54,602 bases of DNA. Source: Spirochaetota bacterium. Lineage in GTDB: Bacteria; Spirochaetota; UBA4802; JAFGDQ01. The position numbers and the translations under genes are program-made. Below, in pieces: positions 275-33,835 of this stretch (its first letter is position 1; each line of letters opens with the position of its first letter). The stretch covers positions 1 to 54,602 of the forward strand of contig JAZDKB010000045.1 of assembly GCA_043803405.1 (NCBI GenBank), in the 5' to 3' direction. The notes beneath the pieces were generated by a model. It made no database searches. It worked only from the letters and a program-made list of their open reading frames with translations, and had not been told where the DNA came from.

Positions 275-994
275 TCACTTTGAGTTCTTTAATAACAACG
301 CGTGTTTCAATTCTTCTATGCAGATTTTCCGTTCTGCGATATTTGTTATATCACCAATTTCCAGTTCTAATTTTTCTTTAAATTGAAAAGTGATATTCAT
401 TTTACACTTAAAAATAAATCTATACTCATTCGCATAATCATGGGATTTTTCTTTCTGCCTTAATGATGTTCCGTGTGGAGACATTAAATATTGCGGAGCC
501 TCTATTACTTCACTTTTATTATAGACAACATCATGAAATGTAACTCCCAATGCAAAGTTAAATGATTTCCATTTTTCATATAAGCGCTTTTTAAATTCAA
601 CGATATCATTTATCAAAACAGTATACGTCCCAAAATTATCATAACATCGCGATAAGTTACAATCTGGCCCTGAGAGACATAAAATATAAACTGGATTTAT
701 AAATGTGCGTTCACAATCAAGTATACCATCGCTCATTTCGTATTTAGAATGTTCGATATTTTCAGTTTCATCACGCCTCTTATTTTCAACAGTTTTAAAT
801 ACTTCAATCTTACGGATAATAATATTCCCTTTTAGAAAATTATCAGCATGATTTTCGCAATCAAAAAATTTTATAAGAACAGGCGGACTATCTGCTTCAT
901 CTTTTATGAATTTATATGTCATATTATTTTCATCGCCTAACGAGACTGTCGAATAATATCGATTTCTTAAAATCCAAATTTTCTCTATGTCCAT
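275..994 (-). CDS. hypothetical cassette protein, loosely DUF2971-like
   Basis: 239-aa AT-rich ORF between two attC sites; YILCLS and K..HDYANEYRFIF motifs. The true start may be the internal Met (MTYKF). Confidence 0.75.
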   Translation of the reverse strand: MDIEKIWILRNRYYSTVSLGDENNMTYKFIKDEADSPPVLIKFFDCENHADNFLKGNIIIRKIEVFKTVENKRRDETENIEHSKYEMSDGILDCERTFINPVYILCLSGPDCNLSRCYDNFGTYTVLINDIVEFKKRLYEKWKSFNFALGVTFHDVVYNKSEVIEAPQYLMSPHGTSLRQKEKSHDYANEYRFIFKCKMNITFQFKEKLELEIGDITNIAERKICIEELKHALLLKNSK

Positions 995-2601: not shown

Positions 2602-2658
2602 AAAATTATCATTTTTCTGATAATTTTTCTTGACATAAAAATATGTATGCCGTAAGGT
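2602..2658 (+). promoter_or_regulatory. operator-like inverted repeat plus sigma70-type promoter of the 119-aa gene
   Basis: AAAATTATCA-N6-TGATAATTTT (2602-2627), then TTGACA (2630-2635), 17 bp, TAAGGT (2653-2658). Confidence 0.5.
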
Positions 2659-2718
2659 TAACGATTTTCAAAATTTTAAACAGAAAATCAAAAATTTCTA
2701 ATTTACAGGAGCAAAAAC

Positions 2719-3078
2719 ATGGTATTCAGCACAACTGAAGTATTTGGTTTTTCCGAATCTCTTATAGAATTTATAAGAAATTCCGCAGCTGTTCTTACTG
2801 AGAAAGGGATTAATACGGAAGCCTGGCTTACTGAACTGGACGAAAGAAAGAAAGCCGCTGTTTCCCTTAATGATGAACAGGAAAAGATGAAAGCGTCAAT
2901 GAAAGAGCTTACAGCCCGCTCGCAGCAGTCTGTAAATATTCTGTACGACGCAGCATCAACAAGGCTCGATGCAATTATAGGCGCGCTGGGAAAGAAAACC
3001 GAATCCGGCAAACAGGCTGCAAAGATAAGGAGCAAGGTCAGGGTTCAGAGGAAAAAGATAGCAGAAAAAACCGCATAA
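2719..3078 (+). CDS. hypothetical all-helical / coiled-coil protein with basic C-terminus
   Basis: 119 aa; AGGAG RBS at 2707-2711; heptad-like middle region; K/R-rich tail. Confidence 0.8.
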   Translation: MVFSTTEVFGFSESLIEFIRNSAAVLTEKGINTEAWLTELDERKKAAVSLNDEQEKMKASMKELTARSQQSVNILYDAASTRLDAIIGALGKKTESGKQAAKIRSKVRVQRKKIAEKTA

Positions 3079-3127
3079 ACTGATAAAAAATACGACAAAA
3101 CAACTTTTTTTGTTCACATATTCTTTT

Positions 3128-3420
3128 TCTCAGGTGATATAAAGAACATCTCAGGAGTAAAAAATATTTTCTCAGCCGAGATGGACTCCGTCCCGGCTGA
3201 GATGAAGCTTATCTCAGCTGGTAGCGCCATATCCCAGGCAGTCAGCTATGCATCCCGGCTAAGATGAACCCTATCTCATATGTCTAAACTCGTATCTCAA
3301 CCGGCAGACGGTCTGTCTCAGCTGAGATGAACTCTATCTCAGGTGAGGTGAACTTCATCTCAGGCGGTCTTGCTCGTTTTTCAGCTGAGATAAAGATTAT
3401 CTCAACCGGTAAAAATATCT
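3128..3420. repeat. degenerate 21-bp tandem array, 14 units, TCTCAG core, palindromic consensus ATCTCAGCTGAGAT
   Basis: Units start at 3128, 3149, 3170, 3191, 3212, 3232, 3253, 3274, 3295, 3316, 3337, 3358, 3379 and 3400 (one unit is 20 bp). Confidence 0.9.
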
Positions 3421-3488
3421 ATCGCCCGGAAGTGTGTTTTCGTTAGAAAGAATTGCCCTTAAAATCTATATGTATATCCGCAAAGGCA

Positions 3489-3550
3489 GCCTCTCGCCCG
3501 GCCGAAGGCTGGGAGAGGGTGGCCGAGCGATAGCGACGGCCGGGTGAGGG
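3489..3550. repeat. REP-like GC-rich double hairpin (CCTCTC...GGGAGAGGG...GGGTGAGGG type)
   Basis: CCTCTCGCCCGGCC-GAA-GGCTGGGAGAGG hairpin, then GGCCG...CGGCC, then GGGTGAGGG. Confidence 0.7.
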
Positions 3551-3704
3551 CACGAAGCAGACTATCCCAAGCCCATAACCGGAAAGGATTTCCCGCTTGA
3601 CATAATTATTATTACACTAAAAATAGTTTTTTTCAATGTAGGTTATAAAGCGTTCCATAGATCATTATTATACATGCCTGAGAACATAACGGAGAAAACA
3701 TAAT

Positions 3705-32743: not shown

Positions 32744-33835
32744 ATGAATAAATACGCATACTCATTTATATGCCTGACGCTAATATTAATATTTGGATGC
32801 ACCAAAGAAACTGTAGAAGATTATTCATCAATAATCTTCTACATCGGAGACGTAAAGAAAAACAGTAAAGAAGTAGAAATCGGCGACATCATTATGCAAA
32901 ATGATATAATTAGCACAGGAGCCCAGTCCTCGTGCGATATTAAAATAGGCGGATCAATTATAAGAATAAAAGAAAAATCCAACATAAAATTGTCCGAATT
33001 ATCAAAAAAAGATGATATTGAAAAAACAACTGTTGATCTTGACGTAGGAAAATTATTATGCAAAGCGAAAAAATTGTCAAAATCTGAAAACTTTCTGGTA
33101 AAAACTCCAACAGCAGTAGCCGGAGTGCGCGGAACTAAATTTACTGTTGAAGCTGATCTGCAAAAGACTTCGCGCATAAAAGTATTTAACGGTAATGTTA
33201 CTGTTATTAAACGTGTAAAACAGCTTGAAGATAATGTCATAGAAAAAATAATGGAAACAGCTCCTAGTCTATCAAATGAAGAAAAAGTAGTAGTAACAGA
33301 GACCGATGTTAAACGAACAGAAAAGATTGTCGAAAAAGCGATAGAAAACGAACAGAAAACAAATCAAAGTATTGAAGCAGCAGTCGTAAAAGTGATGGAA
33401 TCGCACAAAGAAGATGTTGTAGTTGCTAAAAAAGAAATTCAGAAATTTAAAATAGAAGATTTTAAAGAAGAAAATAAAGAAATGATCGCCGTACAGGAAA
33501 AACCCAAAGAAGTGCTGGCCGAAATTAAAAAGATAGTAAAACTTGAAAGAAAACAGCCTATTCCTGAAGGCAGGCTGCTAATTACACGATACGAAATTTA
33601 TTTCATTAAAAACGAAAAACCTCTCTGGGAAGGAAAAGTAATAAATCCGGCCATAGAAAAGGACAAGAAACTATACATTGCTTCCGGAGACTATGTATTT
33701 TGTGCTTCTGTTGACGGCCCGGTTTTCTGGAAAAAGAACATTAAAAATGACGGAAAATTTGAAATAAAAGACGATAAATTAATTATATATTCGGATGGCA
33801 AACCCAAAGAACTGGATTTGGTTACTGGCTTATAA
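32744..33835 (+). CDS. FecR-domain lipoprotein (LipL45-like)
   Basis: Lipobox IFGC; VKTPTAVAGVRGTKF motif; GAGGAGG RBS. Confidence 0.85.
   Translation: MNKYAYSFICLTLILIFGCTKETVEDYSSIIFYIGDVKKNSKEVEIGDIIMQNDIISTGAQSSCDIKIGGSIIRIKEKSNIKLSELSKKDDIEKTTVDLDVGKLLCKAKKLSKSENFLVKTPTAVAGVRGTKFTVEADLQKTSRIKVFNGNVTVIKRVKQLEDNVIEKIMETAPSLSNEEKVVVTETDVKRTEKIVEKAIENEQKTNQSIEAAVVKVMESHKEDVVVAKKEIQKFKIEDFKEENKEMIAVQEKPKEVLAEIKKIVKLERKQPIPEGRLLITRYEIYFIKNEKPLWEGKVINPAIEKDKKLYIASGDYVFCASVDGPVFWKKNIKNDGKFEIKDDKLIIYSDGKPKELDLVTGL

Follow-up and report, generated by a model that had tools for sequence, protein, structure and literature searches.

A small helical protein paired with 21-bp palindromic DNA arrays: a candidate sequence-selective DNA-coating module of bacterial chromosomes

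In a Spirochaetota bacterium, a gene for a 119-residue protein predicted to be all-helical is followed by an array of 21-bp palindromic units, and an adjacent 21-bp array is found at 21 of 29 loci of the same gene family, versus 1.4% of 1,500 random 1-kb windows. This supports the pairing of an undescribed protein with a non-coding array, neither CRISPR nor TIGR-Tas, which a first, sequence-only reading of this DNA had advanced as a candidate. We hold it to be slightly better than an even bet that the protein is a sequence-selective filament coating DNA, with one antiparallel dimer per 21 bp. This reading draws on the gene-array association, the symmetry of the arrays, the non-coding nature of many of them, the occurrence of satellites and the swapping of gene and array, all observed, as well as on a modelled fold and dimer, while DNA binding, specificity, filament formation and purpose are what we infer from these. 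In the open-access literature searched, there was no description of this protein-array system, and the locus presented here (the target) is a clean member of what appears to be a class without known description.

Gene, leader and array at the target locus

All target positions refer to the window, i.e., the whole stretch of 54,602 nucleotides that was analysed. The open reading frame (2719-3078, + strand) follows a ribosome-binding site, AGGAG, read from the sequence at 2707-2711 (+), and the net charge of its product from residue 91 to the end is +9, in agreement with what had been claimed of gene, ribosome-binding site and basic tail. A likely sigma-70-type promoter, TTGACA-17-TAAGGT, is inferred at 2630-2658 (+); it scores under the threshold of a promoter scan, and the pattern TTGAC-17-(T/C)AnnnT is retained in 3/3 close relatives. 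In the leader, the stem GATTTTC...GAAAATC (2663-2689, +) is conserved, folds in the target and in its relatives L012, L014 and L021, and is more likely an mRNA hairpin than an operator of fixed spacing. The same arms, GATTTT(G)C...(GC)AAAATC, also lie 3' of the promoter of three helical genes from a different sequence family, on contigs C47, C6 and C32 of genome G000 (the genome of the target), with a spacing of ~60 nt versus 13 nt at the target; the common arms are possibly a shared 5' RNA stem. Regarding the 10-bp inverted repeat at 2602-2627 (no strand assigned), first taken for an operator-like palindrome, it does exist in the target but is missing from the equivalent place in L012, L014 and L021 (3/3 close relatives); it is not general and probably stands outside the module.

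The interval between gene and array holds only a weak, A/T-rich 7-bp hairpin (3094-3114, +) that is not a canonical terminator, as expected from the earlier statement that no evident terminator separates the two. On the 3' side of the array, a dispersed REP-like hairpin repeat (3488-3565, no strand assigned) constitutes a separate element, with many short copies in 4/5 related genomes searched. According to a Pfam scan, the neighbours of the target are mntP and aminotransferase genes. Beyond mntP are found an ORF similar to DUF6998 and methyl-directed restriction enzymes (1155-1610, - strand; PADLOC E 5e-7) and, at 275-994 (-), an orphan ORF of 239 aa.

The array extends from 3127/3128 to 3420 (no strand assigned) and comprises, as initially described, 14 units that are 21 bp long except for one of 20 bp at 3212, with the consensus ATCTCAGCTGAGAT followed by 7 bases. 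Its lag-21/42/63 autocorrelation is the strongest in the window (0.46 versus a window mean of 0.29, sd 0.027); a stretch at ~33150-33650 ranks second with 0.40. The conserved unit start was confirmed, with 11-14 of 14 units agreeing per position (T 14/14, C 13/14, T 11/14, C 14/14, A 12/14, G 11/14). Each unit contains two dyad axes, ~10.5 bp apart, and the dyad score of the array (0.48 versus 0.36) was matched by 0/300 shuffles. Stop codons are present in all six frames, which, together with the 20-bp unit, argues against an intact coding repeat, as had been suspected.

The sequence-only reading had moreover described a 63-bp super-period in which every third unit carries a fuller consensus and conserved blocks alternate with variable segments. 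This consensus is exact at 3316, but the other four positions have one to three mismatches, and the off-phase positions 3170 and 3337 fit equally well with two mismatches each. The super-period itself reaches p=0.018 when period 3 alone, chosen in advance, is considered and p=0.048 when periods 2-5 are all allowed, and the lag-3 unit identity is 0.56 (p=0.09). The nine non-core units share an identity of 0.33 versus 0.24 after shuffling, with 0/3000 shuffles as high, and the 'variable' parts are thus decayed copies of the consensus rather than free spacers. With statistics this marginal and in-between segments that are decayed and not free, we rejected a repeat-spacer organisation at 63 bp. 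The array does not correspond to a CRISPR array as defined in the Background section of PMC3733652, and its consensus has neither a GTAG nor a CGTC tag.

The protein family and its predicted fold

The 119-aa protein belongs to no Pfam, NCBIfam or PDB family; searches of Pfam and NCBIfam returned no family at cut-off, and those of PADLOC and PHROGs weak rows only. A first homologue search yielded 11 matches with 57-76% identity, including one Spirochaetes MAG, a profile search 30 homologues with Elusimicrobiota among their sources, and an exhaustive search 297 clusters at E<=0.001, for which the 150 homologues listed include nine tandem double-module proteins of 210-265 aa. Its atlas neighbours are clusters without names (score 0.96), Acidobacteriota and Myxococcota being the commonest phyla. 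No homologue was detected by tblastn in phage and plasmid collections or in viral contigs. The gene is present in 6/401 phylum genomes sampled and 4/122 class genomes, in neighbourhoods that differ. Among 25 homologues, A47, Y76 and S80 are invariant and K92 and R104 nearly so, and the basic C-terminal helix has a net charge of +5 to +10 in 16/16 members.

The AlphaFold2 monomer (pLDDT 92.8) comprises four helices (residues 5-21, 23-28, 33-90 and 95-118), one of them 58 residues long, and no strand. Foldseek returned nothing at E<=0.001 and the best hit of a VIA fold search (Z 7.6) covered half-chain helix pairs, negatives that are insufficient to call the fold new. The atlas model resembles (TM 0.73) a cluster with DUF6261 (PF19775) in 45% of its members, yet PF19775 was unmatched in the target, in 16 alignment members and in 12 further homologues.

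Prediction of a homodimer gave a score of 0.66 versus 0.00 for the best control, a value attained by 20/30 solved homodimers and 1/23 monomers, with a partner pLDDT of 86 and at least 90% of contacts agreeing between runs. The predicted contacts (47-75', 44-75' and 40-79') involve residue pairs that sum to ~119, implying that the long helix pairs antiparallel about an axis near residue 60, with the basic C-terminal helices at both ends. From helix arithmetic (1.5 A per residue), symmetry mates would be 60 A apart at residue 80 and 90 A apart at residue 90, and 21 bp correspond to 71 A, an agreement of scale only. The predicted assembly is a rod of two antiparallel chains that is basic at either end.

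Pairing of genes and arrays, satellites and swapping

A locus was scored as associated when the 21-bp periodicity in the 1 kb downstream of a family gene, or in the 0.8 kb upstream of it, passed the score that 1.4% of the random windows attain; the 29 loci were those left after dropping one duplicate and excluding a distant family (L002-L009, L024, L027, L100, L101). The association comprises 15/23 loci first scored and 6/6 loci found after the threshold was fixed. As 17 loci come from genome G348 and five from G332, i.e., 22/29 from two related genomes, they are not independent. The eight loci without array are L012, L014, L021 and L037, together with L011, L022, L031 and L036, which have short flanks or cut genes. 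The expectation that homologues would be followed by arrays was therefore borne out only in part: 21/29 have one adjacent, but among the three closest intact homologues this holds for L010 and not for L012 or for L011, of which only 205 bp downstream are available, and such absences count against the expectation. Neither of two degenerate homologues, L014 and L021, has an adjacent array. In the distant family, arrays are found upstream at L002, L003, L004, L006, L008, L009, L024 and L101 and downstream at L027, with none at L005, L007 and L100. A search of G332 did not find an array in trans for L022, with a pattern that missed L020's own array too; similarly, a stricter array motif run over 401 phylum genomes missed the target's own array.

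The array is downstream of the gene at 17 of the 21 loci and upstream at four. By eye, ten of the downstream arrays sit behind a hairpin and T-run, three behind a strong hairpin whose tail is weak, and four (target, L010, L018 and L030) behind no canonical terminator. No transposase or nuclease family recurs in the 46 neighbouring frames of these loci. An ECF sigma factor, considered as a third component because it adjoins 9/21 loci, was rejected: eight of the nine are paralogues from G348 and G332, the ninth shares 22% identity and has a convergent orientation, and there is none at the target. In these two genomes (L020, L022, L028, L029, L032, L034, L035 and L036), a divergent ECF sigma gene has been duplicated along with the cassette (sigma copies 55-84% identical); protein and array diverge between the duplicates, and the sigma factor of L032 is truncated. 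A broken tyrosine-integrase fragment lies 3' of the gene-array cassette at L028:1972-2460.

Array similarity follows protein identity, averaging 0.91 over the 3 pairs of proteins with an identity of 70% or more, 0.43 between 55 and 70% and 0.31-0.33 over the 179 pairs below 55%. The target and its 62% homologue L010 have the frame ATCT-N6-AGAT-N7 in common. Genome G003 contains a 69% homologue without adjacent array and an orphan array, L052, with the same frame, whose similarity is 0.76 with the L010 array and 0.59 with that of the target. G000 has no array at the site equivalent to L052; a twin-hairpin repeat stands there instead (C3:104007-104230), and the same repeat is also found downstream of the L021 gene, a paralogue without array. 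Loci L028 and L034 have leaders 97% identical, proteins 27% identical and different arrays, so that gene and array appear to have been exchanged together. Conversely, the proteins of L110 and L111 are 69% identical and their arrays unrelated (0.30), which would demand a very fast switch of specificity and speaks against a simple code.

Genome G000 contains eight small helical-looking genes of several sequence families, seven with an adjacent array and one, on C30, without. Since no sequence link to the target protein is detectable in the others, they are grouped by architecture only. Out of 17 orphan arrays of this genome, seven match one of its own gene-linked arrays at 0.6 or more, ten have no gene-linked match and none matches any of 21 foreign arrays. 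Satellites are ~50-75% identical in sequence to their motif-mates, with unit order partly kept in 6/15 pairs tested, and common descent alone could account for the motif likeness that kin and satellites show. The best candidate satellite of the target, on C53, scores 0.53 (95th percentile of all pairs, 0.47) and is the second-best site in a genome scan with the target matrix. Two orphan-array families of G000 (C33:40934, C26:10178 and C6:47182; C10:141560 and C44:26730) match internally at 0.82-0.88 without a gene-linked match; their partner genes may have been lost or unassembled.

An unlikely alternative, which nevertheless accounts for several of these features, sees the arrays as dispersed minisatellites, selfish or passive, that are carried with the gene as a cassette, the protein acting blindly with respect to sequence (on phased or cruciform shape, or by aiding copy formation and spread) or not at all. 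Orthologous flanks in G003 or G004 have no orphan array at 4/4 G000 sites checked, nor has G000 at the single G003 site (1/1), and orphan arrays are thus lineage-specific; many lie just 3' of stop codons, as REPs do (PMC3733652). The unit order kept in some pairs and the 69% identical proteins with unrelated arrays point in the same direction, as does a 5% excess of local pairing (2792 versus 2662 expected), compatible with hairpins or cruciforms. Such an origin, however, leaves unexplained how arrays of unrelated sequence came to share a 21-bp period and two dyads and why satellites retain their motif at so low an identity, and it finds no recurring transposase or nuclease among the neighbouring frames.

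Nature of the arrays, known systems and proposed mechanism

To the 21 arrays from homologue loci we added 24 periodic regions of G000, out of 33 listed; of the others, three were coding heptad repeats, used as controls, and six, weak or ambiguous, were left out. Dyad symmetry (p<0.05) was found in 26/45 arrays versus 0/3 coding controls. Single-base indels (49 events) affect 24/45 arrays, and such a call was also made in 1/3 controls; at least one fully open frame is retained in 24/45. Codon periodicity was seen in 2/45 arrays by a test so insensitive that 0/3 coding controls passed it. No RNA-strand bias is present in the 27 gene-oriented arrays (G-T 323 versus A-C 357). Taken together, position, symmetry, indels and the lack of strand bias favour a constraint on double-stranded DNA for the arrays overall, rather than RNA or coding function, either of which may still apply to a given copy. 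Coding 21-bp repeats do occur in G000 and in viral contigs, and the array motif was found at ten loci of viral contigs, mostly as coding heptads and with no family gene. One phage contig (L088:1480-1590), without a family gene close to the site, has a short ATCT-N6-AGAT 21-bp array directly 5' of a promoter-like TTGACA..TATAAT.

Besides a phased DNA-binding array, which fits the data better, the sequence-only reading had offered a processed RNA array, in which the transcript would be cut into 21- or 42-nt structured RNAs held by the symmetric dimer as a TIGR-like guide or scaffold. In TIGR-Tas, too, a small protein is encoded next to an array whose units are pseudo-symmetric, TasR being a C2 coiled-coil dimer on pseudo-symmetric RNA motifs (PMC12045711), and four loci including the target have no canonical terminator after the gene. 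Both strands of the target array fold well (z -5.1 and -6.3), but the dyad symmetry alone suffices for this. We regard the RNA reading as rather improbable: at 14/21 loci the array is upstream of the promoter or behind a terminator, hence often not co-transcribable with the gene, the G-T bias is lacking and the supposed spacers are decayed repeats. Phage and plasmid collections gave no significant match (best E 4 and 0.3), and no Rfam family reached the gathering score. Units are of 21 bp and have no free spacers, in contrast to the 36-nt units with two free spacers between box C/D motifs of TIGR arrays (PMC12045711), and no Nop domain was found by Pfam scan or among the matches listed of two fold searches.

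Still less probable is a purely local control, in which the array, as a sink or roadblock, would limit transcription of the protein's own gene or insulate a neighbouring one. Upstream arrays do stop 86-136 bp 5' of the start codon, beside the promoter, and many arrays occupy gene 3' ends; most, however, are behind the gene or its terminator, neighbours are unrelated across loci, and self-regulation would be the gene's sole task. The leader, tried as the guide or cognate site of the array, was rejected, as no cognate site was enriched in the genes' own leaders over 15 pairs (mean rank 7.3 and 8.9 of 15, expected 8).

Finally, a heptad-repeat coiled-coil gene (7 codons = 21 bp) now in decay, possibly for a partner or a read-through tail of the helical protein, is a very unlikely origin of the array. 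In its favour, the + strand E-M-N-S-I-S-A-like frame, in which a single frameshift and a single stop are the only interruptions, continues the gene frame past its TAA, open frames persist in many arrays and coding repeats of this period are real. Against it, frameshifts are frequent, a 20-bp unit is itself duplicated in L010, coding controls have no dyad symmetry, the frame has no start codon after the gene's stop and meets an intervening TAG in L010, and arrays are found on either side of the gene.

Among known systems, ParR-parC and TubR-tubC of type Ib/II/III plasmid partition associate a small dimeric, centromere-binding adaptor, ribbon-helix-helix in ParR and winged-helix in TubR, with phased DNA repeats beside its gene, one dimer per repeat building a filament or superhelix (PMC5016525). 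The iterated phased sites adjoining our genes suggest a likeness in how the systems work, and in that only. The target protein, in contrast, is predicted to be strand-free around its long helix and has no Pfam match to either DNA-binding domain; no ParM, TubZ, ParA or other NTPase motor was found in the 46 long frames near the 21 loci (~1.5-kb flanks); and the system, unlike plasmid partition, is chromosomal, with several unrelated pairs per genome, orphan satellites and arrays on either side of the gene. REP/BIME-RAYT systems also combine palindromic extragenic repeats, mostly downstream of genes and lineage-specific, with gene-linked and dispersed gene-less copies (PMC3733652). REPs, as described in that source, are nonetheless discrete tagged hairpins, whereas the units described here are head-to-tail, degenerate and in a 21-bp phase, and the gene has no match to the Y1 tyrosine transposase of RAYTs (Pfam, NCBIfam) nor any recognisable catalytic domain.

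In the DNA-coating reading that we prefer, the gene and its non-coding 21-bp palindrome array would form a matched pair, the dimer binding the double-stranded array, one per 21 bp, and polymerising along it as a cooperative filament. Of the two dyads of a unit, one would lie on the two-fold axis of the dimer and the other on the dimer-dimer junction, an arrangement that would account for the constancy of the period and for the symmetry, and for why decayed units are tolerated provided that they stay in phase. Each protein variant would likely read its own motif, so that several orthogonal pairs could coexist in one chromosome, each coating also the orphan satellites of its motif. The filaments may mark and bridge or insulate intergenic sites, while gene and array would spread as a swappable cassette; we favour marking, bridging or insulation as the purpose only weakly, and consider it doubtful as it stands. 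More broadly, we tentatively envisage, well short of an even chance, a class of chromosomal addressing systems in which an enzyme-free coiled-coil dimer reads a palindrome every two helical turns and polymerises, few substitutions switching its specificity and many orthogonal pairs per genome seeding and tethering satellites.

If binding holds, these proteins would represent a sequence-specific DNA-binding architecture without helix-turn-helix, ribbon-helix-helix or zinc finger. It would moreover make sense of the 21-bp arrays that recur without annotation and are mistaken for heptad proteins by gene finders, and imply a repertoire of 7 to 15 or more different protein-array pairs in some bacteria. 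Being small and apparently orthogonal, such pairs would be potential locus tags or scaffolds, as ParB-parS is used. Should the addressing reading prove true, they would constitute a natural library of orthogonal DNA-coating modules built on a DNA-binding fold so far undescribed.
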